This document shows, in pieces, positions 2,152 through 22,600 of a DNA stretch of 64,000 bases. The stretch lies in the NCBI GenBank assembly GCA_000092065.1, contig CP000582.1, one strand, 5' to 3'. The notes beneath the pieces are model-generated. The model saw only the letters and a list, made by a program, of their open reading frames with translations. It was not told the DNA's origin and searched no databases. Made by a program: the position numbers and the translations under genes. Source of the DNA: Ostreococcus lucimarinus (Eukaryota). Each line of letters opens with the position of its first letter. The first letter of the stretch is position 1.

Positions 2152-3066
2152 TTAGCCAAACAGCACATTCAACGGATCAACTCTAGGAACAATCGACGTA
2201 ACCTGAGCATATTTATGTTCAGAATACTTTTCATGAATTGCTTGAAACTGATCTGGCTCATAAGCCATCATATCGGCATGAAGGATGTCGATGCACTGTC
2301 GCAATTTTGGTGTGTCTAAATCTACCAAGAACGGTATAATTTGTGGCTTTTCTCTACACAAGTAAAATTCTGCAAGGACAGTAGCTGCGGCGGCAATAAC
2401 CGCGGGAGGAAATTGCAGAAAAACACTTCGCATCAGCGTTACTTCAGACAAAAATGATGCCAAATGTGAGCACAACTGATCCGCTTTGATTTTCGATAGA
2501 TAAATTGTGAGAAATGTTTTCGTCGTCGTCAGCGTGACAGAGAAATCCAAACATTTTAATATGATTCGTTCCATCTCGATAATCTGAGATCGATCGTACG
2601 AGTTATCTGTTATAAAGCACAACTCTTCGATCTGTGGTGCATAGATTTCCTCATATTTTGCGGCTATGAATACGCATGTTATCCCCAACAACTGAAGTTT
2701 TGAACGACTTATTGGTAGCTGTTGCAAACACATATCCGTGTACGCCACGCTTAAAAATAGTGTTTCGGGTACGAGCTTATACTCTTCTGCAACTTCTATC
2801 ATCCAATCGACTAAAATACGTCTCATACTCATACTGATATCTGGGGAAGAAAGCCCAAGTTTGCTGGGAGGTTCCCGCTGCGACTTCAGAAGGTTGATGT
2901 AAATATCGTCTACAGTTGAGAACTTGTTAGACATTCTAACGTTATTCCCAGTCAGAGATGCCGCGGATACATCTTTGGCGTATCCCTGGCTCGCGCTCTT
3001 GTGAACCTGGTCTTCGGACGCAGAAGTTGATGGTGCTGAACCTGCTAATTTTGAGCTCTCTTTCAA
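2152..3066 (-). CDS. A/B-type cyclin (cyclin box MRRILVDWMIEVAEEYKL...KYEEIYAPQIEELCFITDNSY)
   Basis: The cyclin-box motifs match B-type cyclins (MRAILVDW..VEV.EEYKL..ETL; AAKYEEIY.P). The N-terminus may continue in an upstream exon (the small ORF 2942..3139 is in a different frame). Confidence 0.75.
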   Translation of the reverse strand: MKESSKLAGSAPSTSASEDQVHKSASQGYAKDVSAASLTGNNVRMSNKFSTVDDIYINLLKSQREPPSKLGLSSPDISMSMRRILVDWMIEVAEEYKLVPETLFLSVAYTDMCLQQLPISRSKLQLLGITCVFIAAKYEEIYAPQIEELCFITDNSYDRSQIIEMERIILKCLDFSVTLTTTKTFLTIYLSKIKADQLCSHLASFLSEVTLMRSVFLQFPPAVIAAAATVLAEFYLCREKPQIIPFLVDLDTPKLRQCIDILHADMMAYEPDQFQAIHEKYSEHKYAQVTSIVPRVDPLNVLFG

Positions 3067-3428
3067 AAGAAAGCGGTTTGTGCTCGAGTTCGTGACATCG
3101 CGTAGTATTGTCAGGTGTCCCTAATTGAGAGCAAAACATGAGAAGATGCGGTTTTGCGTTGTTTTAACATCCGTACCGATTCGTCCACTACACCAGGAAC
3201 CATGTCGCGCCACGAGACTCCGTTTTTTTGAATTTGCCGACTTTCACTGCGACTGGCGAACGGTAGAGGGACCGCAGAGCGACGAAGGAGCGACGAAGGA
3301 GCGATCGTAGATCGTAGATTGCGTCCTCTGCAAGACCGCAAATGTCTTAAGGAATCGAGCTTGTGTAACGTGTTGCGATGTGAGTCGTCTGCGATTTTGA
3401 ACGGCGGGGTTCGTTTCGTTCCCAGCAC

Positions 3429-3518
3429 GGAAAAATTTATATATCGCCCCTTTAGAGAGTACCTACACACATGACGAGTCATGAACCGTGGATATATACG
3501 TATTTTACACCGTTTAGT
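3429..3518. repeat. Left terminal inverted repeat (90 nt)
   Basis: ggaaaaatttatatatcgcccctttagagagtacctacacacatgacgagtcatgaaccgtggatatatacgtattttacaccgtttagt; its reverse complement is at 4192..4279. Confidence 0.8.
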
Positions 3519-3519
3519 T

Positions 3520-4086
3520 CTAAAAGTTTGATTCTACAACATCTACGAGGTACTTACTAATGCTAATTTGCTCGCCTTTGCTTGCCTTGCGTTTGTGTTC
3601 ATCGACCATCTTCTCGTGCCAGCCCCTCTTCCTGCTCAACGCCGTATCACCCGCCGCGCCTCTCATAGGAATCGCAACCAGGTTCGACATACCGAGCACA
3701 CCATCGCCGTCCATTTTGCTATTCTTGGACATGTTTTGAGACATCTCTCTGTGTGTCTTCAAGTTGTGCATGAAACGTTGAAGTTTGTCGAGCGCGTCTG
3801 TGATGTGTGCGGCTTCATCAGGCTCGAACGTAAACTCCGGATCGAGTGCGAGTTGTATCATCTCGGTACACGATTGAACCCAGCGTGACTTTACACTCAC
3901 GTTGTCGAAAGCTGCTCCAAGGCTTCTCCGATGAGTTGGTAGAGAGGCTTCAACATTATCTGGAATCGCTGGAGTCACGTGTCTCCTGGAATCGCTGGAG
4001 TCACGTGTCTCCTGGAGCCCGGACGATACGTGAAGAGCATCACCGAACGGATCGTCGAAGGGATCATCGTCGCACTCGTCTTCCAT
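3520..4086 (-). CDS. Hypothetical acidic protein encoded inside the TIR element (188 aa; N-terminal DDDPFDDPF, C-terminal basic SRKRGWHEKMVDEHKRKASKGE)
   Basis: Longest ORF in the element core. It might be the accessory DNA-binding ORF of a Harbinger-type element, but no clear Myb/SANT motif is seen. A 26-nt tandem duplication lies within it. Confidence 0.25.
   Translation of the reverse strand: MEDECDDDPFDDPFGDALHVSSGLQETRDSSDSRRHVTPAIPDNVEASLPTHRRSLGAAFDNVSVKSRWVQSCTEMIQLALDPEFTFEPDEAAHITDALDKLQRFMHNLKTHREMSQNMSKNSKMDGDGVLGMSNLVAIPMRGAAGDTALSRKRGWHEKMVDEHKRKASKGEQISISKYLVDVVESNF
3961..4012. repeat. Tandem duplication, 2 x 26 nt (tggaatcgctggagtcacgtgtctcc)
   Basis: Exact direct repeat read in the sequence. 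Being 26 nt rather than 27, it would shift the frame of any ORF crossing it. Confidence 0.85.
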
Positions 4087-4191
4087 CCGACCATCGCCCG
4101 CACGCGCGACGACAACTGGCGCGACAGGCGTGGAAAAGACACGAGGCGAACGTGTTTTTCACCAAGGTAGGAATACTCTATTGTAGATGGC

Positions 4192-4279
4192 ACTAAACGG
4201 TGTAAAATACGTATATATCCACGGTTCATGACTCGTCATGTGTGTAGGTACTCTCTAAAGGGGCGATATAAATTTTTCC
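4192..4279. repeat. Right terminal inverted repeat (88 nt)
   Basis: Reverse complement of 3429..3518. Confidence 0.8.
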
Positions 4280-4445
4280 CCCCGAACGCGTTTTTTGAAC
4301 GCGCCGGGGTTTAGCGAAACGCGATGGCGCAACCGTCGCGTTCGCGCGCCCGCCAGTGCGCGGTGCGGCCGCGGCCGCCCGCGGGTGCGCGTGAGTAGTT
4401 CGAGGTGATTCCGACGCGTCGCGTCCGCACGTCGTCGCGCGCCGA

Positions 4446-6239
4446 ATGCCTCGCACGTGCGTGTGCACGAACCCGAACTGCGACAAAGATGTCGAGCGAT
4501 TCGCGTTCCAACTCGGCAAGCACTGGAAAGACGACGTGCTCAAATCGATTCTATCGAGTCTCAGACCCGGAGCGGATGCTGATGACGTAGAAAAATACTT
4601 TTTGCGCGCGATGACGAAGCCCGATGGTGTTCGAGTGTCCTCGCAGCACTTCTTCTGGTACCATTTAGCATGGTCTCGAGGAGACCGCCCGAAGCTGGTC
4701 TTCAAAGATGGCGCGCACGTCCGGCCGACGTACATGCTCCATTCGAATCGGCCGACGTACGCGGGCGAACGAATCGTCGATCCGGCTCGTGTAGAATGTT
4801 TATCACCGCGCGAGACGCGTCTGCGCGTGAAGGCGCCGGCACGGGCGCCCCTTTCAGAGATTTCAAATTTGAATGAGGACGACGTGCATGCGACACAAGC
4901 TGGTGTCAGAGTTGGGATTAAACGGCGACGATCTGCTCCTGCGGCAATTTGCTCGCACAATCGCGCGCAAAACATGTCTTTGAACTCGTTTGAACGGGGA
5001 AGGCCGGGGGAAGAGACGTGCCGCGTGCAAGAAGGGACTATCCACAAGTTACGCTGTGATGAGTTGAAGTTGAGCGAGGCGCTGCGGGAAGAGCGTCAGC
5101 ACGCAGACGACGCGCGCGAGGACGTTCGTTTGCTCACGGAAGAACTTGAACGTATTCAAGAAGAAATGCACGACCAGGATCGAAAATCCTCGTTCGTAAC
5201 TATGCGATACTTGCGGGCGACGAGAGCTAGTGATAAGCAAATCAAAGCGCTTACTGGGTGGCCAACTTTGAAAACATTCGATGCTTTGTGGCGTTTCGTC
5301 AACGCGGGCGACCGCAATGCGACGCAAAACTTGTCGATTGTCAAACGAAAATGGAGGGGCGATTCGACGAGCGCGACGGGTTCGCATGGAACGGTCGTTC
5401 CGCGGAAAAAGAGCTTCAAATGGGAAGATGTATTTTTGGCGTGGTGGATGAGAGCGAAGATGGACTTGACCGCGGATCAACTTGCATACTTCGTCGGAAT
5501 ACACAAATCGACGCTTACACGTGCGCTACATCAAATGACATCATTTTTAACGGTTTTTATACGTGCTTACGGTGGCGACCCGATCGATCCCGAATGGATC
5601 CAGATGACAACAGGGGAGGATTGGAAAGAAGCATACGGGCAGAAACCTTATGAGATTATCGACGTGACTGAAGTGCCCATGGAGACTCCAGATGACCCAT
5701 ATATGCAGCGTTTGTTTTACAGTCATTATAAGAAGCGCTACGTGTGCAAATTTCTTGGCGCCTGTCACTCAAATTGTCTTGCCGCTTTCTGTTCAGTTGG
5801 GTTCCCTGGATCCATTTTTGACAATGAAATTTGCTTTGCTGGAAAGGATCATCCGATGCTTAATCATGCGGTACACCGAGCCAGCATCCGCCGGAGGACG
5901 TTCACAGACGAGAACGACGAAAATGTAGTCGTTCCCGAAACAATTGCAGCTGATCGTGGCTTTTGCGAAGGGTTGAATAGACAGTTTGAACGGGATGCGT
6001 TCAGGCTTGTGCACCCTGCGTTTTCAAGAGGCAAGAATGTGGCCTTCTCCAAGGAGGACATTCTCGACACCAGGGCGCAAGCATGTCGCCGAGTGCTAAT
6101 TGAAAATGCTTTCGGTCGCGTCAAGACGATTTGGAAGCGTATGCGCGGTCCAATAGCTATCTCCAAGCTGAAATCGGTGCATCAGGAGTGGCCAATAATA
6201 TTTTTCCTAGCGCTAGATTTACAAGCTTCGCTAAGGTAG
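4446..6239 (+). CDS. PIF/Harbinger-superfamily DDE transposase (DDE_Tnp_4-like), 597 aa, intronless
   Basis: C-terminal catalytic region: IIDVTEVPMETPDD (first D), YYSHYKKRYVCKF, IAADRGF (second D), LIENAFGRVKTIWKRMRG (E; Harbinger IERAFGxLKxRFRIL motif). N-terminal CxC..C zinc-finger-like stretch and an HTH-like ALTGWPTLKTFDALWRF. Preceded by an ~80% GC stretch 4280..4445. Confidence 0.7.
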   Translation: MPRTCVCTNPNCDKDVERFAFQLGKHWKDDVLKSILSSLRPGADADDVEKYFLRAMTKPDGVRVSSQHFFWYHLAWSRGDRPKLVFKDGAHVRPTYMLHSNRPTYAGERIVDPARVECLSPRETRLRVKAPARAPLSEISNLNEDDVHATQAGVRVGIKRRRSAPAAICSHNRAQNMSLNSFERGRPGEETCRVQEGTIHKLRCDELKLSEALREERQHADDAREDVRLLTEELERIQEEMHDQDRKSSFVTMRYLRATRASDKQIKALTGWPTLKTFDALWRFVNAGDRNATQNLSIVKRKWRGDSTSATGSHGTVVPRKKSFKWEDVFLAWWMRAKMDLTADQLAYFVGIHKSTLTRALHQMTSFLTVFIRAYGGDPIDPEWIQMTTGEDWKEAYGQKPYEIIDVTEVPMETPDDPYMQRLFYSHYKKRYVCKFLGACHSNCLAAFCSVGFPGSIFDNEICFAGKDHPMLNHAVHRASIRRRTFTDENDENVVVPETIAADRGFCEGLNRQFERDAFRLVHPAFSRGKNVAFSKEDILDTRAQACRRVLIENAFGRVKTIWKRMRGPIAISKLKSVHQEWPIIFFLALDLQASLR

Positions 6240-8354
6240 ATTCCGCGTCTCGCACGCGTCTGTAACCCTGTGTAAAGTACATTTGTGATTGTTCTCTTTT
6301 TCATATACGTCGAAATACTCCCTGAGAAGTGTTGATGGCTTGTTTCGCGACCACATCGCGCTTACATCAGGTGCAACTTCAGGGAGCTCCAAATCACCGT
6401 CACCGCGAGTGTCCACAGTGCATCGTCGCTTTGCGCGCCCAGCTTCGAATCGATTAAAGTCAATGTTGCTAAGAGGATTTTTGCGATTCATCGGATCCCC
6501 TTCGCCACTCGTGCCGAACCACTCACTTTCGAGCGACGTGCATGGATCAGCTGGTCGTTGCAACTTGGCAAAATACCAGAGCGCTGCGATGACATGGATG
6601 CACCCTCCGAAGTCTCCGCCCGCTCCCGCCTTGCACGCGCACGTCCCACGCTCGACACTGACGACATGGTCATGGACATGTTCATTCGTTTCTTCGTCGA
6701 TGCACCCATACTTGCATAACAAGCATACAGCGACGGCATAACGCTCTGCTTTGAGTGATGCCGGAATACCAACTCGGAACCACACGCGGAAGTGAGTTTG
6801 CATCCACGGATGCCCCACGTGCGCAAAACGAATCGGAAGGGGCGTCCGGGCGTGTATTCGTGCGTATCCTTGTCGATACGCTTTGGATCGAACCGGGTCG
6901 CCGTAAACGGACATCCCCGCGAGCCACGTCGTGATGATGTCCTCACCCATAAGCGGTGACGTCTCGCGGAAAAGCTCAACGTCAGTGCTCCACACTTCAG
7001 CATCCATTGGTGCGTCCAGATCGGGATCTAGCTCAGGGAATTGCGTCACCGGAAGATGAAAATGATGAACCAAATATGTATGAAGACTTTTCCCTTCTGG
7101 ATCCTGGACGTCGCCGTCGACGTCGATATCTAGCTCCTCGTACCGACGCTCAAGCTCCATCCTCTGTATGACCTCTGAGATGATGACATCTTTGTCCCGA
7201 ATATCCTGACATCCGCGGCGGCGATCGTTCCTACGCACGTTCAGCCAACGTATTAAATCCGATTTGGAGTTGTCCTCGACTCTCTTTTCCGGTAAAACGG
7301 CGCCTTTGATGAGATACTTGGGGATTCGTCTCGCCCGTGTTTCACCATGTCTAAAAAGGGCAGCCACTGCAACCAATTCAACGGGTTCGTGAGTATCCGC
7401 ATCGCGCAAACCTAAAGCGAATTCTTCGTTTTCTGAGTGATTTGCGTTGAATATGGTTGCGTCATTGAGCCAGCGTCTCTCTTTCGTCCGCATATCGTAC
7501 ACGATTGCTCGCTCAAAGCCCGCCAGGCTTTCCTCAAGTTTGAGAATTTGCGTGTCCTCATCACTCGCGTCGACGACGTCCTTCTTGACGAGGTATTTCA
7601 CAAAAGAGCGGATACTGAGAGTCTCTGCACTCTGTATGCACGCTACAATGGCTTTCAGAGCCGTTTGGGGTCCAAGTCCGGGAACTTTCCCCTCCCTGTA
7701 ATCACACCCGCTCGCCGCCGCCCACAAGCGCATGGCGGCGTCGCCGTGCATGCACATGAGCTCCGCAACTGTGTTCACCTCGTTCGTGTCTACCGGCATC
7801 CTCAGGTTGTTTCTGTTAAAAACGTTGCACTTTAACGTCGAAACGCTCCAAGACACCTTGTGGACGACCTTGGCGCACCCGAGCACCACTGCATCTGTGT
7901 CATCCGTCAACACGAAATCAACGAGACCACTCGACTCCATGTACTTCAACTGGTGATCTGATTCGTTTGGCGCCACGACGTACACGAATCCACGCTTCCG
8001 CACTTCATTCAGTATCCGAGGCAAATAACATCGTTCGAATTTTTCACCTATCGTACCTGCTCGCTTCGCGTGCGTCTCCTTCTTGTGTGCAGTCCTCGCA
8101 CCGTCGAAAACAAGGACTGGGAAGACACCTGCATTCACGAGCTTCGTAGCGCGCGAAATGACCGTTTCTACAGACGAATCCAGTTTATCCTGAACAGAAC
8201 CAGTTTTTCGCATCGCCCACCCCTGGTGTATCCAGATGTTTGCGTCTACCCCCGCTTTCGCGTTGGCGAACTCGCCGCCGATGGACGTGCGGACGACCGC
8301 ATCGTCGAACGCTTTCCACCCTGCGTCGACGCCCATACGCACCAGAATTTGCAA
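6231..8354 (-). CDS. XPG/Rad2-family (FEN1/EXO1-like) 5' nuclease fused to a C-terminal SWIM-type zinc finger; probable true start MGVDAGWKAF at 8336
   Basis: XPG-N: MGVDAGW...VFPVLVFDGARTAHKKETHAKR. XPG-I: VVAPNESDHQLKYM...VLTDDTDAVVLG. H3TH-like: GKVPGLGPQTALKAIV. C-terminal SWIM-like CxCxnCxH: GTCACKAGAGGDFGGCIHVIAALW. The 3' end overlaps the transposase ORF by 9 nt (convergent). Confidence 0.65.
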   Translation of the reverse strand: MQILVRMGVDAGWKAFDDAVVRTSIGGEFANAKAGVDANIWIHQGWAMRKTGSVQDKLDSSVETVISRATKLVNAGVFPVLVFDGARTAHKKETHAKRAGTIGEKFERCYLPRILNEVRKRGFVYVVAPNESDHQLKYMESSGLVDFVLTDDTDAVVLGCAKVVHKVSWSVSTLKCNVFNRNNLRMPVDTNEVNTVAELMCMHGDAAMRLWAAASGCDYREGKVPGLGPQTALKAIVACIQSAETLSIRSFVKYLVKKDVVDASDEDTQILKLEESLAGFERAIVYDMRTKERRWLNDATIFNANHSENEEFALGLRDADTHEPVELVAVAALFRHGETRARRIPKYLIKGAVLPEKRVEDNSKSDLIRWLNVRRNDRRRGCQDIRDKDVIISEVIQRMELERRYEELDIDVDGDVQDPEGKSLHTYLVHHFHLPVTQFPELDPDLDAPMDAEVWSTDVELFRETSPLMGEDIITTWLAGMSVYGDPVRSKAYRQGYARIHARTPLPIRFAHVGHPWMQTHFRVWFRVGIPASLKAERYAVAVCLLCKYGCIDEETNEHVHDHVVSVERGTCACKAGAGGDFGGCIHVIAALWYFAKLQRPADPCTSLESEWFGTSGEGDPMNRKNPLSNIDFNRFEAGRAKRRCTVDTRGDGDLELPEVAPDVSAMWSRNKPSTLLREYFDVYEKENNHKCTLHRVTDACETRNLP

Positions 8355-8671
8355 ACACGGCTACAACTCGATCAGAAATACATTTTGTCACCTGTTCATG
8401 TGCCTCCGCGATGCCCGACGCGCGTGCGCGCCACGACAGCAGCGTGAAAGTGACGGGGATGCGCGACGGGCCGAGCGAGTTCAAAAAAAGGACGAAAGGG
8501 CACCGGATTCGAGGTTTTCGTCGACAGTGGGTCATGACGAGTCACAAACGTTCGACTTAAATATGTAAAATGATAGGAAAACCTTAATGCAATGGGTCAT
8601 AATAGCTGAATATATATGGTTTCTCGTCGTAATGGACAAAAGTTGCTTTCATAAAAATAAGGATGTAGTTG

Positions 8672-8789
8672 TTACTGAGAGTGGGGTTCGAACCCACGCA
8701 GTCAATGACTACCAGAAATCTCACCAGTTTTTTCGGTGAAGCTTATTCGCACTTGAGTCTGGCCCCTTAGACCACTCGGGCATCCCAGC
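8672..8789 (-). tRNA. tRNA-Leu (anticodon CAA) with a 34-nt intron 3' of position 37; long variable arm; discriminator A73
   Basis: Minus-strand read: GCTGGGA TG CCCGAGTGGTCTAAGGGG C CCAGA CTCAAG[tgcgaataagcttcaccgaaaaaactggtgagat]T TCTGG TAGTCATTGACTGC GTGGG TTCGAAC CCCAC TCTCAGT A. The D-arm is almost identical to yeast tRNA-Leu. Anticodon stem CCAGA/TCTGG and T-stem GTGGG/CCCAC pair perfectly. The acceptor stem has two G-U pairs. A T-run (TTATTTTTA) lies downstream on the minus strand. Confidence 0.75.
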
Positions 8790-8993
8790 ATGCGCAAAGT
8801 GTACAGCTCGCCGAACAAGTACTGTTGTCCCCCCCCATACTGCAGAAAAAAAGTATGGACTCTCATACATCCATGTGACTGACGCGCACGTTCTTACTCG
8901 TTCTTACTGAGTTCATCTTCGCAATGTATGGAGGCCGAAGAGTAATTATATTTTGTAGTTGAGCGCGGTTTTCTGTTCCATCAACGAATATCG

Positions 8994-10454
8994 CTAATCA
9001 AAAAAGCTATGGCTGATTGCGTCTAGTGCACTGATACGATCTTCTCGTTTGGGTGTGAGTAGCGCTGTCGCAAGCGCCCATCCCGCACCTTGTGCTGCGT
9101 CAAGTAAAGCCTCTCCCCTACAGCTTGAGCTCACGACCACACGATCATGTGTTCGCCACTCACTCAGATCATAACGATGGCGAGCAACTTCGTTCTTGAA
9201 TGTTAGTAAGCGTTCAGAATCACGGAGATACGGGAAACATAGCTGTAGCATGACGATACCCACGCTGAACATGTCGAATTTTCCAGGTTGATATATTTCC
9301 CAAAGTTCACTTAAATTGTCTGCAGTTGGTTGTGGTGCAGTCGAAGGAAGCAAATATATATCATCTGCAGAGCAGTATCTAGGGTCGGCTGGTCCTTCAC
9401 CGGGAACATAGTTTTTAGGAACTCCCAAGCACTGAGCAGCGGCACCCAGGTCGATGAACACAACTCCACCTTCTTCTGAGAAAACTATATTATCTGGCTT
9501 GATGTCTCGATGTACAATACCCACCGAATGTAAACTCTCCAAATTCTTCAGAATCGAACGCAGAACGAGTTTTATCATCTCACACTCAGTTGTACTTTGT
9601 GAAAGATTGTAAGCTTTGCGAGTAATTGTTTCGAGTGTTTCAGGTTTACGCAATGCTTCCCCAAGAGTAACCGAGCCACAGTATTCCCACATTAGCCAAA
9701 GGCCAGCTGGTAGCGTACCGTTGTAGATCTGACCTTCTTGACGCTGATCTATTTCGCAACAGCCGAAGAATCGAGCACACGATCCCTTCGCCAACTTGTG
9801 AACTGCCTCGTTCAGCTCAAGCTCTGCGTCTAAGAGCTCAGTCGCACCATACACATTTCTTTTTGCACATTTTAACACGACATCTCTTTCCTTCCACGTA
9901 CCACGGAACACAGTGCCAAAACTACCTTCACCAAGTGGTCCTGATTTTGATATTCGTATATCCTCGGGCTGCACGCCAACCGTTCGACGCAAGACAGCTG
10001 GACTATTCAACCTTTCATTTCGCTTCTTTTCCCAATAAGAGGCCATGTCTTCAGATTCTATCGAAAAAGTCTCAGGTCGTGAAAACGTGAGCTTGACTTG
10101 CACACTTTTTTGAGTAGATATGAAGGAGATGATGTCGTCGAAGTACACACCACTACAACCCGTCAAAGCGACGTTGTTTATTTCAATCGCATCAATAATA
10201 TCACCCACCGAAATAATACCACAATCAGCCGCGTGACTTCTTGGAGAGATGTCGGCAACATAAGCACCCTTATCGTCGTTCTGTGGCTGCAAAATTAAGC
10301 CCAAAGGCCTCTTCAGCGTCGTTTGAAATGACTCTTGTCTTGAGGAACCGCACGTTACACGTTTTCTACCACTGGACAACTTTTTGTTTTTCAACTGTAC
10401 TTTTTTCGATGTCGCCGCATTTACAATAGCGACTAGTGCTAAGCTGCGATTCAT
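8994..10454 (-). CDS. Ser/Thr protein kinase with N-terminal PDZ-like domain
   Basis: Kinase motifs: GEGSFGTVFRG...VVLK (G-loop plus Lys), HRDIKPDNIVF (catalytic loop), IDLGAA (DFG variant). N-terminal GLILQPQNDDKGAYVADI...GDIIDAIEINNV resembles a PDZ fold. Confidence 0.7.
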   Translation of the reverse strand: MNRSLALVAIVNAATSKKVQLKNKKLSSGRKRVTCGSSRQESFQTTLKRPLGLILQPQNDDKGAYVADISPRSHAADCGIISVGDIIDAIEINNVALTGCSGVYFDDIISFISTQKSVQVKLTFSRPETFSIESEDMASYWEKKRNERLNSPAVLRRTVGVQPEDIRISKSGPLGEGSFGTVFRGTWKERDVVLKCAKRNVYGATELLDAELELNEAVHKLAKGSCARFFGCCEIDQRQEGQIYNGTLPAGLWLMWEYCGSVTLGEALRKPETLETITRKAYNLSQSTTECEMIKLVLRSILKNLESLHSVGIVHRDIKPDNIVFSEEGGVVFIDLGAAAQCLGVPKNYVPGEGPADPRYCSADDIYLLPSTAPQPTADNLSELWEIYQPGKFDMFSVGIVMLQLCFPYLRDSERLLTFKNEVARHRYDLSEWRTHDRVVVSSSCRGEALLDAAQGAGWALATALLTPKREDRISALDAISHSFFD

Positions 10455-10646: not shown

Positions 10647-13600
10647 GTGACATATGACATCGTATTACAACGTTTTACCCCCACTTCGCAAGGACCGACC
10701 ACCCCATATCCATGTGCTATAAAAGCTAACTCAAAATGGAAGCTCGTACGTCTGAAACGCTTGGCGCTCGAGCGTTTCCGATGTCCGATGTTAACGCGCC
10801 ACAAACCGGAGAGCGTTCAGAATGGTACGCCCCGAAATGAATCACGAATGAGCAATCTAGACACACGCGCTATGTCGAACCCTTACTTTCAGGTCGGGCG
10901 ATGGGACTGCACGGACGAGCTCGAGGGGTGTCAATTCTCCGCGCCACATACGTCGGTGTCAGTTCCTAATTTCGAAGAGATTCAGACCCTTCACTACACC
11001 TGCGTGTATGAAGTGGCGATCACGTGTACACAGCGGCATGATATGCATAACGATGAGTTCGCGCATGTACTTAGTTCTGTCATCGAGCTCGCAAATCGCG
11101 TTGACCTGACACGACTTAGGCAACATCACTCCATAGATAACTTTGCCACACACGTTCTCACTTTTCGGTTCATTCTGGACCTGTTGAGGCAAACTTATCA
11201 GGAATACATCAAAGGAAGCATAGAAAATAATTCGTTTGAGCATGTCGAATTTACTTTCAACAATTGCATGGATGGTACGCACGGAATGGCAACATGCTTT
11301 AAACCGAATAAAAAGCATAGTCACCTTTGTTACATTTTGGATATTTCGCAGGCAGAAAGAAGTTGCAATGGTCGTACTGATGACACAAAATGCGTGCACG
11401 ACAAAATTACTATGAACGATCGCGTTCTTTCCGCGGCTAAGATCCCAGACAACGCAGTGAATAAACAATTCAGTGCTAGTATACTCAATGATGTGTATGG
11501 TTTCGATTCAAGTCTGTTCCATATTTCTCAGTCGGAAACCCTCTGCATGGACCCACAACAACGACTATTACTTCTTGCAGCAGCAGACTTATACCTGAGT
11601 AACACACGTGTTTGTCAACACGACGACTCCTTCTGCGTGCACGTCGGTGTATCGTGGAATGACTTTGAGGAAATTCGCAGAAAGTATAGTGCAGACTTTT
11701 TCTCCACTTATGATTCGACGGGAACATCAATAAGTGTCGCATCGGGTAGAATTGCGTATTATTTTGATTTCAAAGGGTGTGCTGTGACGATTGATACGGC
11801 TTGTTCATCATCTTTGGTTGCGTTGCATCAATCCATGTACGCAGCTGGCTCGCTCCGTGAATCAAGTGCACTTGTATGTGGCATCAACTTGATTTTGACA
11901 ACCACGATGACACATCGATTTCAGCTTGCTGGAATGATGTCTTCAGAGCATCGATGTATGACATTTGATGCACGCGCGGATGGCTACGTCCGGAGTGAGG
12001 CATGCAACATCGTACTCTTACACTTCAATGGCTTCACAAAAACTCATAGGAATGTACTGCGGCATGACGTTCATATGTCATGCGTCGTCAATCAAGATGG
12101 AACATCAACTGGACTTACGGCACCTAATGGAACAGCTCAGCGGAACCTGATGAATGAGTTACTATCGGACGTTTATAACCCTTCAAAACACGTTGGTGCT
12201 AAAATACATGCCCACGGCACAGGTACGCCTCTTGGGGATCCGATAGAGGTGTTTGCTATCAATTCTGCCCTCTCGTTTTCGTCACTGTGCAGGCTGTATG
12301 TGTCAGAAAAGTCGATGCGAGGGCACACAGAACCTGCTTCAGGTCTATGCAGCACCATACTTGCTTTCGTATCAGGTGCACAGTGCAAGCTACATGGTCA
12401 ACCACATTTACAGCAGTTAAACAATCATATACTAACATCGGTTGATGAAAGTATTTTTCAGCGTTCACTGCATTCCAGTTTTCCCTTAACTTCTATGGCG
12501 AGTGTCACCACAGTAAGCTCCTTCGCGTTCCAAGGGACGAACGCAATGGCTTCACTGACATATATCGACAAATGCAGTATTAGAGTGATTCGCAACACGT
12601 CAGGTCTGAGATCTTTGGTCAAGTTGGAGACTGAATCCCCTGTAAGACTCCCGTACACATTTTCTTGCCTTAGCATCGTCAATGGGAAAATGATACAGCT
12701 AACTTCAATGATTCACGACAAAACATTGAAGCGACTTTTGGATCATCGTGTAGCTGATATGCATCTTATGCCAGCCACAGGCCATCTTGAACTTGAAAGA
12801 GAGCTCACGAAGTGCGCTCTCGTAAGGAATGAACCATATCTTCTGACAAAGATCGCATTTATGCTGCCTCTCAAGCTTGATGAAAGCAATCAACTTATCA
12901 CAGAGATGAACACACATGGTCGCTTACGCGTTGGATGTGGCTCTGGCATATCCAATTACTGGTGTAGTACTGCACGACTTCAAATACCAGTAGGACGTGC
13001 CTGGTGCACGGACCGTACTTTTTATCTGACTAGTAAACTCGTTTCTCGGCGTTTCAAAGGTGCGACCGCAACAATAGCAGGGACGACGCCAATTCTCGAT
13101 TCACAAAATGTCGTGAATCCGTGTATCCAGGATGCGAGTCTACAATGCTCTGCATACGTCTTGAACACGTCAGCTTTCGCATCTGATACAACCTACATGG
13201 ACTGCGTATCGTTACTTAAGCTACCAACAACAATTCAAGACGTCATAGTTGTTAATCAGACAGGAAAAATACTTGTTAGATCGACGCATGTTGACATGTT
13301 GCAGAAGACGCAGCATGTGACTGAAAGTAATAACTCTGTCACAAGTAACTCTTCGAGTAACAATAAAACGCAGACATGGATACATCGTTTACTGTGTAAA
13401 GTATCAACCGTACGGATGAAAGCTGGCTTACGCACTCGCACATGCTTGGAACTCGCGAGATTGTTGTACCACGCGAGACAACAAAGAGTGCTGATATCAA
13501 ATATGCAAAACTTGCGTGAAGTAGGCAGTTTACATGCTCCAGAACTGATGCCCATCATGCGCGAAATGGGTCGTAAGTCAATGCAAGATATTAATTCGGC

Positions 13601-16600
13601 TAGTGCCTCTCTTTGCGCGGTTGCGCTGCTGCAGGCTTGCGGCGCTCGTGCGCGCGTTTCCGGCGCCCACGTGCGTGCAAACGACATCGTCCACGAGGAC
13701 GCTTCGGCCGCGCCCGCAGTCTGTGGATCGTGCGTGCGCGCCACCGTGCAATCTTCCGCGCAGGAACGCAGCGAGCCATTGGTGCTGAGTGTCGCGAGCG
13801 CCCCGCACACCGCGCCAGCCCGAGCGTTGCGATCGATCGCCGCCGGGGCGTCGATCGCCGGGGCGCTGTGCGTTGAGCGGCTGCTTCCGGCGTTCGGTCG
13901 CCGGACGCCCGCCGCGTCGCGCGACGGCGCGGCGACGACCACGGCGTCGCCGGCACCGAAAGTCTCGAGCGTGTTCGTGACTGGCGGTCTGGGCGCGTTG
14001 GGTCAGACTTCGGCGGCGTGGTACGCGCATCGAGGCGTTCGCCACGCCTACTTGACTGGTCGCCGCGGGCGCGGAGAGTCCCTTCTGCTGCGATGGTCGT
14101 CGCGCGGCGGTACCGACGTGAGCGCATTGCACGTGCTTCGCGTCGACGCGTGTGCGACCGACGAGGCGTCGTACGGCGGTGCGCGCGCGCACGCGCGCGT
14201 GCGCGCACACGGCGTGCTGCACGCGGGCGGCGTGCTACGCGACTCTTTGACTGCTCGCCAATCCGCGTCGGCCCATCGATACGTGTGGTCGTCCAAAGTA
14301 GTGTCCGCGCACGCATTGCTCCGCCAGTGCGTCGGCGTCGAGCGCGGCGCGCGTCACATCGCGCTGTTCTCGTCGGTGGCGGCGCTGCTGGGGAGTCCAG
14401 GGCAATGCAACTACAGCGCGGCCAACGCCGCGCTGGACGCGCGAGCCGCACACGAGTGGTGCCGCGGGTACGCGGTGCAATCCGTGCAGTGGGGCGCGTG
14501 GGACGGCGCGGGAATGGCGCTGACAAACGCGTCTGTACTCAGGAACGCGCGCACGACAGGCATCGGCGTGCTCGATCCGCAAGCCGGGCTCGGGGCCGTA
14601 CACGTCGCGCTTCAGGGCGCATCAGTGACGGGTCGCTGGCGGGCAATCCAAGGCGTCCTGGCCGTCGTCCCGTTCCAGTGGTCCGTGCTCGCGCGCGCGC
14701 AGCGCTCGCGCGCGCTGATTGCGGAGTACCGCGCGGAGTCGGCGCGGTCGAGCGCTCCAGTCGCCGTCCATCCGGGCGCCGAGGAAGACGCGGCGCGCGA
14801 TGTGTCAGATGAGAGCGTGCGGCAGATCGTGGCCTCCGCCGTGACGCGCGCGCTCGGCAGAGACGTGTCGGTGGACGCGTCGCTCATGGAAGAGGGCCTA
14901 GACTCGCTCGCGGCGGTCGAGCTCGGAGGGGCGTTACAAAAGGAAACGGGCGTGAACATGCCGGCCACGCTGGCATTTGACTACCCGACGATCACCGCGA
15001 TATCTGGGTACCTGAAGGGTGCGATGCTGGCGCGATCGCGTGCGCGCCAATCGAGCGGCGCGGCGTCCAGCGCCGCTCGCACGCGCGCCGCGAGCGGCGC
15101 GGTCGCGCATTCGCGCGACTCGATGCCAGGTATTGCATCCAACGCGCGCGAAATCTTGGGTCTTGCGCCCGTTGTTATGGCCATCAGACGGAGCGTGCGA
15201 CGACTCGACGCGGATGATCGAGAGCCAAAGCCTGCTCGACATGGCGGCTCGGCGTTGTTTTCATCGTTCGTGAGGTGCGTCATGGCAGAGCGAGCCTCTG
15301 AAGATCGCTTCGACACGCCATCGTTGGGCAGGCAGCCGAGCGCGACAGCGCGCGTGGTCTCCTTGACGAAAGCCAGAGATTTCACTACACAAGCTCTCGA
15401 CAGCATGCCGAAATGCAACGAGATTGAGCTGAGCGTCGTCAGCGCTGTGTCGAGTAAGGCATCAGGCGCGCACGATGCCGTGCGTGTGAACAACATGCGA
15501 CATGCGTGCGGCGAAGTGTGTGATCCACAAAGCTCAAAATCGCACGAGTTCGTCGCTCGGCGTCTTGTGCAGTTTGGGTACTTCATCGAGCGCAGCTTGT
15601 TTGACGGGGAGCAGTTCTCCGTAACGGCGCACGAGGCGCGGTTGATGGACCCGCAGCAGCGCGTGCTCCTGGAGAACGCGCTCGCCGCGACGAGTGCGAC
15701 GCCGCACAGCGCGCCGAAGCCAGCCACAGCCGTGTCCGTCGGCGCTTGGACGTCTCAGTACGCAGACATGTGCCGCGTGTACGAGCCAACGCCGGGGCCG
15801 TACTCTGGCGTTGCTTCCGCCTTGAGCGTGCTGTGCGGTCGCGTATCGTACACGTTTGGTATGCGTGGCCCGTCCGTGTGTGTCGACACCGCGTGCTCCT
15901 CCTCGCTCGTGGCCGCGCATGTTGCGAGCTCTCACTTGCGCGATGGATCGTGCGAGGACGCCCTCGTCGCCGGCGTGAGCGTGAACGTCGGCATCGGCAC
16001 CTTCCTCGTGGCCACCGCCGCGAGCATGCTATCGTTCGATGGTCGGTGCAAAACCTTGGATGCCAGCGCCGACGGTTACGCCAAGGGCGAGTGCTGCGTG
16101 GTCCTGCGCGTGTCGGTGGACGGGGCGAGCGCTGGAGCGCCCAAAGCGCCCGATCTTCCAAACGCCGAGTCTCCCTCTCTCGCTCTTCTCGAACAGACCG
16201 GTGTGAACCAGGATGGACGGTCGAGCTCGCTCACCGCACCAAACGGGCCGTCGCAGCAGGCACTCGTGGCCGATGCGCTTCTCCGCTCGGGGCTGCACGG
16301 CGACGCGCTCGGCAGGCTGGAGATGCACGGCACGGGTACTTCGCTGGGAGATCCGATAGAGGTCGGCGCCGCGCTTGAGGTTCTCGCGCCGCCGACGCGC
16401 GCGGACCGGGCGCCGTCCAGGGGCCCCGCGCTCACGCTTGAGGGCGTGAAGCCACGCGCTGGCCACTGCGAACCAGGGGCTGGCGCGGTTGGGTTGCTGT
16501 TTGCGATGGCAAACTTGACGGAGCGAGCCGTCGCGTCCCTCGTCCACCTGCGCCAGCTCAACCCTCACGTCGAGGCCGCGACGCGCCGAAACGCACCGTC

Positions 16601-19600
16601 GCCGCATGCGCGCGCGCCGGTGCTCGCGCGACAAGGCATGCCGCGACCGGATGACGGCGCGTCTGAGGCTGGAGCAGCGGACGCTGCTCGAGCGCGCGTG
16701 CGGCGATCCGGCGTGAGCGGCTTCGCGTTCCAGGGCACAAACGCGCACGCAATCATGGCCCGGGGACCCGGACAGGCGACTGCGCCCGGGTACACGGGAA
16801 GCACGCACACGGCGGCGCGTGCGTGGGAGCGTCAGCGCCACTGGTGCGCGCCAGAACGGCACTGCCTCATCGAGTCCGTGCGCGCTCTGCATCCTCGCGA
16901 GGGAGACTCGAGCGCGTTGGCGCGGTCGTGCGTGCGCCTGTGTCGGTCCGCGTCGCTCGCTGGCATGCTTGATCACGCCGTCGGGCTCCGGACGCTGCTA
17001 CCAGGCACAGCGCACGTCGAGATATGTCGAGCCATGGCGGGCGCGCTGGCAGACCAGCCGCTCGCCGACATCTCGCTGTCGCACGTATCTTTTGCAGCGC
17101 CCCTCGAGCTTCGAGCGCCGACGACCGACGTGCTGTGCGACGTCACGCCGCAAGGCGTGGCCCGCGTGGGCGTGCGCGTGTCGTCGTCCTCTGCCGCCGC
17201 GCCGTTCCTCGCGGGCGCGCTCAGCCGCAGAAGCGCCTCAAGAATTACTGCGTCTCCGGCGCACCTCTCGCGAGGACCGGCGATGCCCGCGCTGGACGTG
17301 CAGCCTTGTGTTCACGGCGCGAGCTGGCTGCGCTCGTCGCAGCGACGAGGCCCGGGCGCGGAGCACCGCGTGTACGGCGACATACGCGCGCGTCAGATGT
17401 CCACGCTGTCGGCTGCGGCGTATCACTCGCCGCCCGCAGTGCTCGATGCCGCGCTGCACGCGCTCAGCGCGTGCGCGCCGCCGCCGGGTAGCGATGCGAC
17501 AGAAGAGAGCCCGCACGTCCCGGCCACGATCGGCGGCGTCCGCACGCGAGGCGGGCACTCGGACATATACCGCGCCCGGTTCGCGCTCGCGACGGCTCCG
17601 CCTGAGCGCGGGGAGCGGAACGCGTCCACGCGCAGATCTCGTCACCACCTGTGGGACTGGTCGAGTCTTTCGGCGGCGCATCGAGGGTGCGTGGTGCACG
17701 CGCTGGAGTCTCGACGACTCGGTGGCGCCGCGGTCGTGCGCTCGCGAGCACAACAGCGCTCGAGGGCACCGCCGCCGCGTCGCGCGGCCGCGCCGCGTGT
17801 GCTTTATGGAGTCGGGCAACAGCGCGCGTGCGGCGCGGCGGATGGCCAGGGCGCGCGTCGACGCTCAACCCTCAACTCGCAGTGCTTTGTGGACGACGCG
17901 TCGCACCGCCGCGAGCTGATGGAGACCCACGCGTCACCATCGATCGCGCAAGGCAGCACGCGAAGCAGCACGCGCGCCTCTCTTTGCGCGGTTGCGCTGC
18001 TGCAGGCTTGCGGCGCTCGTGCGCGCGTTTCCGGCGCCCACGTGCGTGCAAACGACATCGTCCACGAGGACGCTTCGGCCGCGCCCGCAGTCTGTGGATC
18101 GTGCGTGCGCGCCACCGTGCAGTCTTCCGCGCAGGAACGCAGCGAGCCATTGGTGCTGAGTGTCGCGAGCGCCCCGCACACCGCGCCAGCCCGAGCGTTG
18201 CGATCGATCGCCGCCGGGGCGTCGATCGCCGGGGCGCTGTGCGTTGAGCGTCTGCTTCCGACGTTCGGTCGCCGGACGCCCGCCGCGTCGCGCGACGGCG
18301 CGGCGACGACCACGGCGTCGCCGGCACCGAAAGTCTCGAGCGTGTTCGTGACTGGCGGTCTGGGCGCGTTGGGTCAGACTTCGGCGGCGTGGTACGCGCA
18401 TCGAGGCGTTCGCCACGCCTACTTGACTGGTCGCCGCGGGCGCGGAGAGTCCCTTCTGCTGCGATGGTCGTCGCGCGGCGGTACCGACGTGAGCGCATTG
18501 CACGTGCTTCGCGTCGACGCGTGTGCGACCGACGAGGCGTCGTACGGCGGTGCGCGCGCGCACGCGCGCGTGCGCGCACACGGCGTGCTGCACGCGGGCG
18601 GCGTGCTACGCGACTCTTTGACTGCTCGCCAATCCGCGTCGGCCCATCGATACGTGTGGTCGTCCAAAGTAGTGTCCGCGCACGCATTGCTCCGCCAGTG
18701 CGTCGGCGTCGAGCGCGGCGCGCGTCACATCGCGCTGTTCTCGTCGGTGGCGGCGCTGCTGGGGAGTCCAGGGCAATGCAACTACAGCGCGGCCAACGCC
18801 GCGCTGGACGCGCGAGCCGCACACGAGTGGTGCCGCGGGTACGCGGTGCAATCCGTGCAGTGGGGCGCGTGGGACGGCGCGGGAATGGCGCTGACAAACG
18901 CGTCTGTACTCAGGAACGCGCGCACGACAGGCATCGGCGTGCTCGATCCGCAAGCCGGGCTCGGGGCCGTACACGTCGCGCTTCAGGGCGCATCAGTGAC
19001 GGGTCGCTGGCGGGCAATCCAAGGCGTCCTGGCCGTCGTCCCGTTCCAGTGGTCCGTGCTCGCGCGCGCGCAGCGCTCGCGCGCGCTGATTGCGGAGTAC
19101 CGCGCGGAGTCGGCGCGGTCGAGCGCTCCAGTCGCCGTCCATCCGGGCGCCGAGGAAGACGCGGCGCGCGATGTGTCAGATGAGAGCGTGCGGCAGATCG
19201 TGGCCTCCGCCGTGACGCGCGCGCTCGGCAGAGACGTGTCGGTGGACGCGTCGCTCATGGAAGAGGGCCTAGACTCGCTCGCGGCGGTCGAGCTCGGAGG
19301 GGCGTTACAAAAGGAAACGGGCGTGAACATGCCGGCCACGCTGGCATTTGACTACCCGACGATCACCGCGATATCTGGGTACCTGAAGGGTGCGATGCTG
19401 GCGCGATCGCGTGCGCGCCAATCGAGCGGCGCGGCGTCCAGCGCCGCTCGCACGCGCGCCGCGAGCGGCGCGGTCGCGCATTCGCGACGTACAACCATTA
19501 CTCAGCTCCCTCGTCTACGTCTATCATACGTTCCGCATGAAGTCAGCCGACGAACGACTCTTGGCATTAGCGGTCAATATTCTCACGAGCTTAGACACTT

Positions 19601-22600
19601 TAGCTCTGCGGGACCTTCGACCAGTAACTTTGAGGGAGTCCTCTTTGTTCGCATTCATAACTCCACCAAGCCCTTACCCGTGCATCCATATTTCATTGGC
19701 AACTTTTTGCGTTGTGACGAACTCGAGTTCGGCTTGTTTGGCGCACCGCACAGCGAATGGACTACTCTGGACGCGCGGCAGATTCTCTTGATTGAGAGTG
19801 TACACACTATCCAGCTGAACAACAGTTCAGACGTTTCATTGCGCACTCTAGAGACGACGGCTGTTCTTGTTGGAGCACAAGCGGTAGATTCAACTGACGA
19901 GCATAGCGTTGAGATACAGTACAACGCCTACTCTGGCGTTGCTTCCGCCTTGAGCGTGCTGTGCGGTCGCGTATCGTACACGTTTGGTATGCGTGGCCCG
20001 TCCGTGTGTGTCGACACCGCGTGCTCCTCCTCGCTCGTGGCCGCGCATGTTGCGAGCTCTCACTTGCGCGATGGATCGTGCGAGGACGCCCTCGTCGCCG
20101 GCGTGAGCGTGAACGTCGGCATCGGCACCTTCCTCGTGGCCACCGCCGCGAGCATGCTATCGTTCGATGGTCGGTGCAAAACCTTGGATGCCAGCGCCGA
20201 CGGTTACGCCAAGGGCGAGTGCTGCGTGGTCCTGCGCGTGTCGGTGGACGGGGCGAGCGCTGGAGCGCCCAAAGCGCCCGATCTTCCAAACGCCGAGTCT
20301 CCCTCTCTCGCTCTTCTCGAACAGACCGGTGTGAACCAGGATGGACGGTCGAGCTCGCTCACCGCACCAAACGGGCCGTCGCAGCAGGCACTCGTGGCCG
20401 ATGCGCTTCTCCGCTCGGGGCTGCACGGCGACGCGCTCGGCAGGCTGGAGATGCACGGCACGGGTACTTCGCTGGGAGATCCGATAGAGGTCGGCGCCGC
20501 GCTTGAGGTTCTCGCGCCGCCGACGCGCGCGGACCGGGCGCCGTCCAGGGGCCCCGCGCTCACGCTTGAGGGCGTGAAGCCACGCGCTGGCCACTGCGAA
20601 CCAGGGGCTGGCGCGGTTGGGTTGCTGTTTGCGATGGCAAACTTGACGGAGCGAGCCGTCGCGTCCCTCGTCCACCTGCGCCAGCTCAACCCTCACGTCG
20701 AGGCCGCGACGCGCCGAAACGCACCGTCGCCGCATGCGCGCGCGCCGGTGCTCGCGCGACAAGGCATGCCGCGACCGGATGACGGCGCGTCTGAGGCTGG
20801 AGCAGCGGACGCTGCTCGAGCGCGCGTGCGGCGATCCGGCGTGAGCGGCTTCGCGTTCCAGGGCACAAACGCGCACGCAATCATGGCCCGGGGACCCGGA
20901 CAGGCGACTGCGCCCGGGTACACGGGAAGCACGCACACGGCGGCGCGTGCGTGGGAGCGTCAGCGCCACTGGTGCGCGCCAGAACGGCACTGCCTCATCG
21001 AGTCCGTGCGCGCTCTTCATCCTCGCGAGGGAGACTCGAGCGCGTTGGCGCGGTCGTGCGTGCGCCTGTGTCGGTCCGCGTCGCTCGCTGGCATGCTTGA
21101 TCACGCCATCGGGCTCCGGACGCTACTACCAGGCACAGCGCACGTCGAGATATGTCGAGCCATGGCGGGCGCGCTGGCAGACCAGCCGCTCGCCGACATC
21201 TCGCTGTCGCACGTATCTTTTGCAGCGCCCCTCGAGCTTCGAGCGCCGACGACCGACGTGCTGTGCGACGTCACGCCGCAAGGCGTGGCCCGCGTGGGCG
21301 TGCGCGTGTCGTCGTCCTCTGCCGCCGCGCCGTTCCTCGCGGGCGCGCTCAGCCGCAGAAGCGCCTCAAGAATTACTGCGTCTCCGGCGCACCTCTCGCG
21401 AGGACCGGCGATGCCCGCGCTGGACGTGCAGCCTTGTGTTCACGGCGCCATCAGACGGAGCGTGCGACGACTCGACGCGGATGATCGAGAGCCAAAGCCT
21501 GCTCGACATGGCGGCTCGGCGTTGTTTTCATCGTTCGTGAGGTGCGTCATGGCAGAGCGAGCCTCTGAAGATCGCTTCGACACGCCATCGTTGGGCAGGC
21601 AGCCGAGCGCGACAGCGCGCGTGGTCTCCTTGACGAAAGCCAGAGATTTCACTACACAAGCTCTCGACAGCATGCCGAAATGCAACGAGATTGAGCTGAG
21701 CGTCGTCAGCGCTGTGTCGAGTAAGGCATCAGGCGCGCACGATGCTGTGCGTGTGAACAACATGCGACATGCGTGCGGCGAAGTGTGTGATCCACAAAGC
21801 TCAAAATCGCACGAGTTCGTCGCTCGGCATCTTGTGCAGTTTGGGTACTTCATCGAGCGCAGCTTGTTTGACGGGGAGCAGTTCTCCGTAACGGCGCACG
21901 AGGCGCGGTTGATGGACCCGCAGCAGCGCGTGCTCCTGGAGAACGCGCTCGCCGCGACGAGCGCGACGCCGCACAGCGCGCCGAAGCCAGCCACAGCCGT
22001 GTCCGTCGGCGCTTGGACGTCTCAGTACGCAGACATGTGCCGCGTGTACGAGCCAACGCCGGGGCCGTACTCTGGCGTTGCTTCCGCCTTGAGCGTGCTG
22101 TGCGGTCGCGTATCGTACACGTTTGGTATGCGTGGCCCGTCCGTGTGTGTCGACACCGCGTGCTCCTCCTCGCTCGTGGCCGCGCATGTTGCGAGCTCTC
22201 ACTTGCGCGATGGATCGTGCGAGGACGCCCTCGTCGCCGGCGTGAGCGTGAACGTCGGCATCGGCACCTTCCTCGTGGCCACCGCCGCGAGCATGCTATC
22301 GTTCGATGGTCGGTGCAAAACCTTGGATGCCAGCGCCGACGGTTACGCCAAGGGCGAGTGCTGCGTGGTCCTGCGCGTGTCGGTGGACGGGGCGAGCGCT
22401 GGAGCGCCCAAAGCGCCCGATCTTCCAAACGCCGAGTCTCCCTCTCTCGCTCTTCTCGAACAGACCGGTGTGAACCAGGATGGACGGTCGAGCTCGCTCA
22501 CCGCACCAAACGGGCCGTCGCAGCAGGCACTCGTGGCCGATGCGCTTCTCCGCTCGGGGCTGCACGGCGACGCGCTCGGCAGGCTGGAGATGCACGGCAC

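Follow-up and report, generated by a model that had tools for sequence, protein, structure and literature searches.

An 851-bp element with long terminal inverted repeats on chromosome 2 of Ostreococcus lucimarinus is very probably an internally deleted, non-autonomous Mutator-like element

The DNA analysed here, referred to as the window, is a stretch of 64,000 nucleotides that forms part of chromosome 2 of Ostreococcus lucimarinus CCE9901 (assembly GCA_000092065.1, contig CP000582.1). Four of the proteins that it encodes are identical to proteins of this strain. At 3429-4279 it contains an 851-bp element bounded by long terminal inverted repeats (TIRs, also called arms), which is the subject of this analysis. 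The element is located between a cyclin gene (2152-2934, minus strand) and an STN7 kinase gene (8994-10454, minus strand), and its right end adjoins a PIF/Harbinger transposon. A giant polyketide synthase (PKS) gene begins at about 13.6 kb, some 9 kb from the element. The low-GC part of chromosome 2 is transposon-rich and is a candidate mating-type region (PMC2367439; PMC8557840). According to the available portion of a preprint (bioRxiv 10.1101/2025.04.21.649811), Mutator-like elements (MULEs) flagged by EDTA are enriched in the low-GC 'BOC1' compartment of Ostreococcus chromosome 2, often beside giant PKS genes; that portion gives density at the superfamily level only, with no family anatomy such as TIRs, target-site duplications (TSDs) or a deletion series. 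Literature searches for Ostreococcus MULEs returned no family-level description. The features of the locus are listed in Table 1. Sequence stretches compared with the window carry L numbers and predicted proteins P numbers.

Table 1. Features of the element at 3429-4279 and of the adjoining transposon (positions in the window; ORF, open reading frame).
Feature	Position	Strand	Description
Left TIR	3429..3518	+	90 nt; outer terminus GGAAAAATTTATATAT; repeat search and alignment
Right TIR	4192..4279	-	88 nt; (TA)2 against (TA)3 of the left arm
Core	3519..4191		673 bp; interior left over after probable internal deletion
26-nt tandem duplication	3960..4016		2.2 copies, 100% identical; near the putative internal deletion junction
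ORF	3520..4086	-	188 aa, XP_001416425.1 'predicted protein'; fused remnants from both ends of a transposase gene region
ORF residues 53-180	3547..3930	-	match to residues 535-662 of 663, the C-terminal 128 aa, in the MULE-domain transposase of L060
ORF residues 1-24	4015..4086	-	match to the N-terminus of the first ORF of longer elements (MED..DDDPF.DPF)
Left junction	3428..3429		host DNA (...CCCAGCAC) directly against the MULE terminus; probable deletion breakpoint
Right junction	4280..4293	+	CCCCG, then AACGCGTTT, retained right copy of the 9-bp target duplication from entry into Harbinger
Host PIF/Harbinger	4280..8598	+	truncated at left end; DDE_Tnp_4 4446-6239 (+), XPG/Exo1-like nuclease 6231-8336 (-); Pfam
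Harbinger right TIR	8582..8598	-	CCTTAATGCAATGGGTC, then A and TAA, probable TWA target site

The two arms make up 178 of the 851 bp (21% of the length). An inverted-repeat search returned the pair 3433-3518 and 4192-4277 (86 nt, 97% complementary) and a second, overlapping pair that extends to 3429 and 4279. In the alignment, the sole difference between the arms was one TA near the outer end. A 52-nt segment of the arm occurred exactly twice in the window, once on each strand, when 0 occurrences were expected from 100 shuffles, and the arms were the only inverted repeat of at least 30 nt in the window. No tandem sub-repeats were found in the arms with a tandem-repeat search. Folded as single-stranded DNA, the element gave -199.6 kcal/mol (z = -17 against shuffles), a strong fold that merely reflects its arms. 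An earlier note on this DNA, made from the letters alone, had described an element of about 850 bp with near-perfect inverted repeats of 90 and 88 nt that differ by one 2-nt indel, around a 673-bp core carrying an acidic ORF and a 26-nt tandem duplication. All of this was found at the same positions, the N-terminus of the ORF being acidic (MEDECDDDPFDDPFGD), and the folding that the note had suggested as a check gave the result above.

The TIR is not confined to this locus. The earlier note would have been refuted by a TIR unique to this place or by copies with inconsistent termini, and neither condition holds. An exact 22-mer of the arm matched 35 stretches in JGI metagenome contigs, 32 of which were true family members; the matches in L026, L034 and L036 were rejected as chance 22-mer matches in unrelated 64%-GC contigs. 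The same 22-mer had no match in IMG/VR viral contigs, so that this search gives no evidence for a viral vector of the family. The arms in the 32 stretches were 91-100% identical to the window arm, and some long contigs bear several copies each. Every family arm starts GGAAAAATTTATAT..CGC(C/A)CCTTTAGAGAGTACC, with the constant terminus GGAAAAATTT, and the flanks outside this terminus differ at more than 20 junctions.

TSDs were recognised at five loci. They are 9 bp long at four of them, namely L011 (CTCTTGACG), L021 (CCGAAAACC), the locus common to L043 and L010 (TTCTGAGAG) and the insertion in Harbinger (AACGCGTTT, left copy in L002/L033/L041 and right copy in L006/L007/L009), and 8 bp long at the fifth, L018 (TCGGATCG). 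In L019, which represents another allele of the L043/L010 locus, just a 65-nt arm fragment stands between both intact TSD copies.

The interiors of the family members vary. Full copies of the E type, to which the window copy belongs (L002, L003, L012, L018 and L031/L043), have cores 89-99.9% identical to the window core, and the cores of other members are longer, shorter or different. L011, L025 and L030 hold copies with a different interior; this sister variant (L011:1366-2499, 1134 bp, at least three loci) has the same arms and an unrelated 233-aa ORF, which had no Pfam match and could be a Pack-MULE-like cargo. The Pack-MULE class was rejected for the window copy itself, whose ORF is transposase-derived. 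The family also includes solo arms and two-arm elements of only 98-268 bp (L021, L017, L009, L039). Alleles at the L012 locus (L012 compared with L009/L033/L017) identify short members as alleles of full copies, at the same loci, from which part has been deleted. The E-type deletion junction was found at at least four different loci, with another junction variant in L018, and the L011-type junction at at least three. Since the same deletion junctions occur at several loci, the derivatives spread after the deletion.

Some family arms are preceded by an extra copy of their outer 33-35 nt (L006:496-528, L007:56-90, L009:11474-11508, L010:8586-8621, L021:2883-2915). Three independent loci share this breakpoint at arm position 33-35, and at one of them 6 nt of the target duplication are repeated. 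The breakpoint may be a site protected by the transposase or a preferred stop of gap repair.

Longer relatives of the family encode a transposase. L060 contains, in this order, an arm 79% identical to the window arm, a 402-aa ORF starting MEDVNDDDPFGDPF, a Peptidase_C48/Ulp1 ORF and a 663-aa ORF with the MULE domain (PF10551, 43.7 bits, cut-off 27.6). The proteins P0149 and P0150 also carry PF10551, and their elements have homologous arms; like L060, P0150 has both a Peptidase_C48 (Ulp1) region and the MULE transposase domain in one element. In a second, more diverged subfamily (L061-L066), the 649-aa MULE-domain ORF is intact and the right arm is homologous to the window arm. The arms of L060, L058, L054 and L062, and so those of all subfamilies, can be aligned from end to end and have conserved blocks. 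When the three L060 proteins were compared with all loci by tblastn, a nested deletion series was obtained, from full length down to the last 45 codons only. Cys-rich motifs were seen by eye only (CCECGPEDC...KKCGCKK; VKCSCALGRNGQLC).

The 188-aa ORF of the element matches both ends of this transposase gene region. Residues 53-180 gave 64% identity to the 663-aa protein of L060 by BLASTP (E 4e-53; the coordinates in Table 1 are from tblastn), and 16 of residues 1-24 are identical in P0125 from L060; this N-terminus is also present in intermediates of 312-499 aa (P0121-P0126). Longer relatives keep both ends (MEDECDDDPFDDPF... and ...EQISIRNYLS) around an internal sequence that becomes progressively longer. 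The 61 homologues of the ORF were all from Ostreococcus or marine metagenomes, some of them annotated in O. tauri; their C-terminal 125 aa or so are conserved and their N-terminal half is riddled with indels. Pfam returned no significant domain for the 188-aa ORF or for the intermediates of 312 aa and 223 aa. An AlphaFold2 model of the ORF from a 15-sequence alignment had a mean pLDDT of 52.7 and was mostly disordered, with two helices at about 80.

The 26-nt duplication bears on the reading frame. With the single copy of the unit in L012, the MEDEC frame ends at 34 aa, and the C-terminal module shares its frame with an ATG located within the arm. The window has two copies, which bring the MEDEC start codon and the C-terminal module into one frame, and L018, with its other junction, is likewise in frame.

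We therefore consider the element at 3429-4279 very probably a non-autonomous MULE, an internal deletion derivative of a longer family member, because it combines long TIRs and a 9-bp TSD in its family with a MULE-domain relative that has homologous ends and with a colinear interior. Long conserved TIRs, a TSD of about 9 bp (range for MULEs 8-11), relatives with PF10551 and colinearity of the coding ends were all found. The hAT superfamily was rejected: the TSD is 8 bp at only one of five loci, the TIRs are 90 bp and the related transposase is of the MULE type.

The ancestor would have been a longer element with TIRs of about 90 bp around a Cys-rich N-terminal ORF, a Ulp1/C48 protease ORF and a MULE DDE ORF whose C-terminal tail is conserved. 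Internal deletion would have left both TIRs, the 5' leader with the first 31 or so codons and the last 135 or so codons, and the 26-nt tandem duplication would help to join these remnants in one frame. A full-length member of the family would provide the transposase in trans; this enzyme would bind the conserved TIR blocks, excise the element and reinsert it with a 9-bp target duplication, and abortive gap repair after excision would produce the series of internally deleted and one-armed derivatives. Both the mobilisation in trans and the gap-repair origin are suggested by what is established for Mutator elements.

The earlier note had proposed a recently active foldback or MITE-like DNA element (MITE, miniature inverted-repeat transposable element). 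The inverted repeats are indeed the termini of a mobile DNA family, with copies and TSDs elsewhere, which the note had proposed to look for, but the element is neither a foldback nor a generic MITE. The note's claim of recent activity has only indirect support, from copies that are almost identical at different loci and from natural haplotypes that differ in structure. A foldback or MITE-like element of no assignable superfamily, with the arms as the functional unit and the ORF incidental or captured, would account for the long, near-perfect arms, for members of 98-268 bp that are almost arms only and for the strong hairpin potential. However, the arms have no tandem sub-repeats, the ends of the ORF match both ends of a MULE-domain element with homologous arms, the TSD measures 9 bp and the short members are alleles of full copies shortened by deletion. 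This explanation is very improbable, being largely refuted by the transposase homology. The MITE class was rejected for the window copy as such (851 bp, a transposase-derived ORF of 188 aa, no TSD); the members of 98-268 bp would qualify for it.

The kept open frame could be explained in another way, if the element is a MULE derivative whose truncated N- plus C-terminal protein is functional, as a regulator or inhibitor of transposition acting in trans, by analogy with KP-type repressors. In three structural variants (with the duplication, without it in L012 and with the other junction in L018) the C-terminal module remains part of an ORF that is 165-220 aa long and starts from an ATG, and this module is the best-conserved part across subfamilies. 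The pN/pS among derivative copies is about 0.45, but this value comes from 16 substitutions and is not distinguishable from neutrality. The conservation may also be inherited from transposase-encoding ancestors, the sequence next to the arm may serve needs in cis, and the modelled protein is mostly disordered. A regulatory function of the protein appears unlikely.

The transposon to the right of the element has its own ends. The inverted counterpart of its right TIR, GACCCATTGCACTAAGG, lies at L002:3140-3156, some 87 nt to the left of where the MULE is inserted; the Harbinger TIR reads GACCCATTGCA(C/T)TAAGG and is unrelated to the MULE arm. The breakpoint 8598/8599 was seen in L002, L007, L009 and L045, and the outer flanks of 4280-8598 in L002/L009 differ from those of the window and represent a second genomic context. 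We also tried a 17-mer at 8533-8549, which weakly resembles the arm, as a third, degenerate arm of a larger MULE and rejected it, since the Harbinger TIR pair explains the 8598 breakpoint instead. The second gene of this Harbinger, annotated as 'Exodeoxyribonuclease I' (XP_001416426.1), encodes an XPG_N/XPG_I nuclease of 701 aa whose C-terminal part has a Cys/His motif similar to SWIM. In Harbingers the second gene usually codes for a Myb-like DNA-binding protein.

An empty haplotype is provided by L045, a 53-kb contig that is 99% identical to the window on both sides and in which 75 nt replace window 3430-8599, in the order kinase, 75 nt, cyclin gene. The TAA that follows the Harbinger right end is present there as a single copy. 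The 75 nt (L045:5421-5495) contain a small inverted repeat, CCGGTG...CACCGG. L050 and L051 have a variant of this 75-nt stretch with other downstream sequence, so that at least three haplotypes exist for this intergenic site.

As judged from these junctions, the MULE is nested inside the PIF/Harbinger transposon. The missing TSD of the window copy probably results from the loss of about 180 bp beside its left end: compared with L045 and L002, the window lacks, next to the left MULE terminus, about 103 nt from the left end of Harbinger, the left copy of the TSD and 75 nt of host sequence. A similar deletion adjacent to the terminus was seen in L017 relative to L009. The resemblance between the two flanks (left TTTGAACGGCGGGGTT, right TTTGAACGCGCCGGGGTT) had been taken for a possible target-site duplication or sub-terminal repeat, and it is neither. 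The left copy (TTTGAACGGCGGGGT) belongs to the host DNA and occurs in the empty haplotype L045 as well, and the right copy lies in the interior of Harbinger in every context.

The second MULE subfamily (L062:5333-5932; L063:3356-3400) adjoins the same Harbinger sequence, in both orientations. Its implied TSD, CCCCGAACG, is offset by 4-5 nt from AACGCGTTT, and the subfamily was seen against either side of the site. This may be an insertion hot spot or an old composite, and it may explain the CCCCG at the right junction of the window copy.

The proximity of the two transposons raises the question of whether the element is a Tourist-like partner, or a terminal part, of the adjoining PIF/Harbinger, moved by the DDE_Tnp_4 protein encoded 167 bp away. 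The DDE_Tnp_4 gene is immediately adjacent, and the pair co-occurs in two contexts and is jointly absent in L045. However, the Harbinger has its own unrelated TIRs and a TAA target, most members of the arm family are not beside it, members elsewhere have a 9-bp TSD rather than TWA, and the 9-bp duplication AACGCGTTT brackets the element inside Harbinger, which is the signature of a nested insertion. A Tourist-like origin is extremely improbable.

The orientation of the core differs among haplotypes. It is the 5' end of the ORF that points towards the DDE gene in the window and L001, and the 3' end in L002, L006 and L009. L006 runs through Harbinger into window 8599-9220 and thus represents the same locus with the opposite core orientation; its core is 96% identical to that of the window, and an extra 35-nt copy of the arm terminus is present at its junction. 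L002 and L009 have the same inversion at the second Harbinger locus. The simplest explanation would be that the 90-bp arms recombined or underwent gene conversion, with each other or with those of other copies. For the window flanks, a simple two-copy inversion model was rejected, as the predicted reciprocal junction was not found among the loci examined. Both core orientations relative to the DDE flank, in natural haplotypes that include the same locus, are also what a host invertible segment would give, a gene between inverted repeats that is switched in orientation to control its expression. Such a switch is barely credible for an element that is multi-copy with TSDs, has a transposase remnant as its ORF and has no recombinase associated with it, and homologous recombination between 90-bp inverted repeats is expected to cause inversions as a by-product.

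For the non-autonomous MULE at 3429-4279 the following history can be proposed. It would have inserted into PIF/Harbinger at AACGCGTTT, and the composite would then have been placed between the tRNA/STN7-kinase gene side and the cyclin gene on chromosome 2. The later loss of about 180 bp beside the left terminus, made up of the left end of Harbinger and 75 nt from the host, would have taken the left TSD with it. The core would have come to lie in the opposite orientation to that of other haplotypes, the simplest route being recombination between the two arms.

Several observations weigh against our assignment. No fully intact autonomous element was found among the relatives, the right arm not being detected in L060 and the left arm not in L061-L066, and the arms of the transposase-bearing relatives are only about 70-80% identical to the window arm. 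A zinc finger of the WRKY-GCM1/FAR1 type and a SWIM finger were not detected by Pfam in the transposase. No TSD was found at the window copy, at the L009/L033 locus or at L039, and the adjacent deletion by which we account for the window copy is deduced from other haplotypes. The family copies were counted in metagenome contigs and not in the reference assembly. The orientation variants come from short-read assemblies and may be mis-joins across the 90-bp repeat, although they agree in three independent assemblies. The signs of transposition are indirect, namely the same derivative at several loci, allelic internal deletions and the solo 65-nt arm fragment between intact TSDs in L019.

A related copy is present in O. 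tauri RCC1115 (L067, KZ155840.1, 5454-7903), with arms 87-88% and core segments 91-97% identical in nucleotide sequence to the O. lucimarinus element. Orthologous proteins of the two species are reportedly only about 70% identical. Because the O. tauri copy is 88-97% identical, it seems too similar for vertical descent, which suggests a possible horizontal transposon transfer.

A more far-reaching picture would combine several of these features. It is of an active MULE family in wild Ostreococcus that inverts its interior in place, with both orientations segregating at one locus, inserts repeatedly as two subfamilies 4-5 bp apart in an Exo1/XPG-bearing Harbinger, and spreads between species, and whose truncated fusion protein might regulate transposition. 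We regard this picture as possible but doubtful.

The assignment has consequences for annotation. XP_001416425.1, annotated as a 'predicted protein', is a transposase remnant, and the neighbouring 'hypothetical protein' and 'Exodeoxyribonuclease I' lie in a Harbinger that is missing from some natural haplotypes. For Ostreococcus, the analysis provides an anatomical account of a MULE family (TIR, 9-bp TSD and deletion series) in the low-GC candidate mating-type region. The metagenome contigs show presence/absence, internal-deletion and orientation polymorphism of these elements in wild populations. The known workings of MULEs are unchanged by this element.

Three further features of the window were recorded. 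A tRNA gene at 8673-8789 (minus strand, Rfam 42.4 bits) lies 75 nt from the Harbinger right end; its length of 117 nt indicates that it probably contains an intron, and it was seen by Rfam only, as ARAGORN returned none for the window. At about 13600-24000, within a region of 42-49% GC, a block of about 70% GC encodes the giant PKS, a modular type I enzyme, and contains exact repeats of at least 300 nt at spacings of 4128, 2139, 4371 and 6267 bp. Two neighbouring perfect short palindromes are present at 58-93 (17-nt arms, 2-nt spacer) and 119-155 (18-nt arms, 1-nt spacer).

Among known systems, the MULEs of the BOC1 region, as far as the available portion of the preprint describes them (bioRxiv 10.1101/2025.04.21.649811), share the genus, the chromosome compartment, the giant PKS neighbourhood and the superfamily with the element described here. 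Like Drosophila Foldback (FB) elements, the family has short members dominated by inverted repeats and is linked with rearrangements. FB elements also have a 9-bp TSD, but their arms are very long and composed of tandem sub-repeats, in contrast to the unique 90-bp sequence of the arms here. KI-MULE or Kaonashi-type elements of Arabidopsis and related plant MULEs carry a Ulp1/C48 protease domain. L060 and P0150 resemble them in pairing Peptidase_C48 with the MULE domain, although the likeness is one of domain content and the host is a prasinophyte alga. With the Mu1-type non-autonomous MULEs of maize, which are internally deleted relative to MuDR, there are differences: the TIRs are about 90 bp here against about 200 bp, the window copy has no TSD, and each of the transposase-encoding relatives found is without a detectable arm on one side. 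Like Mu1-type elements, the family nevertheless has long TIRs with conserved terminal blocks, a 9-bp TSD, a deleted interior derived from a transposase gene and many deletion variants with the same ends, and mobilisation in trans is presumed.

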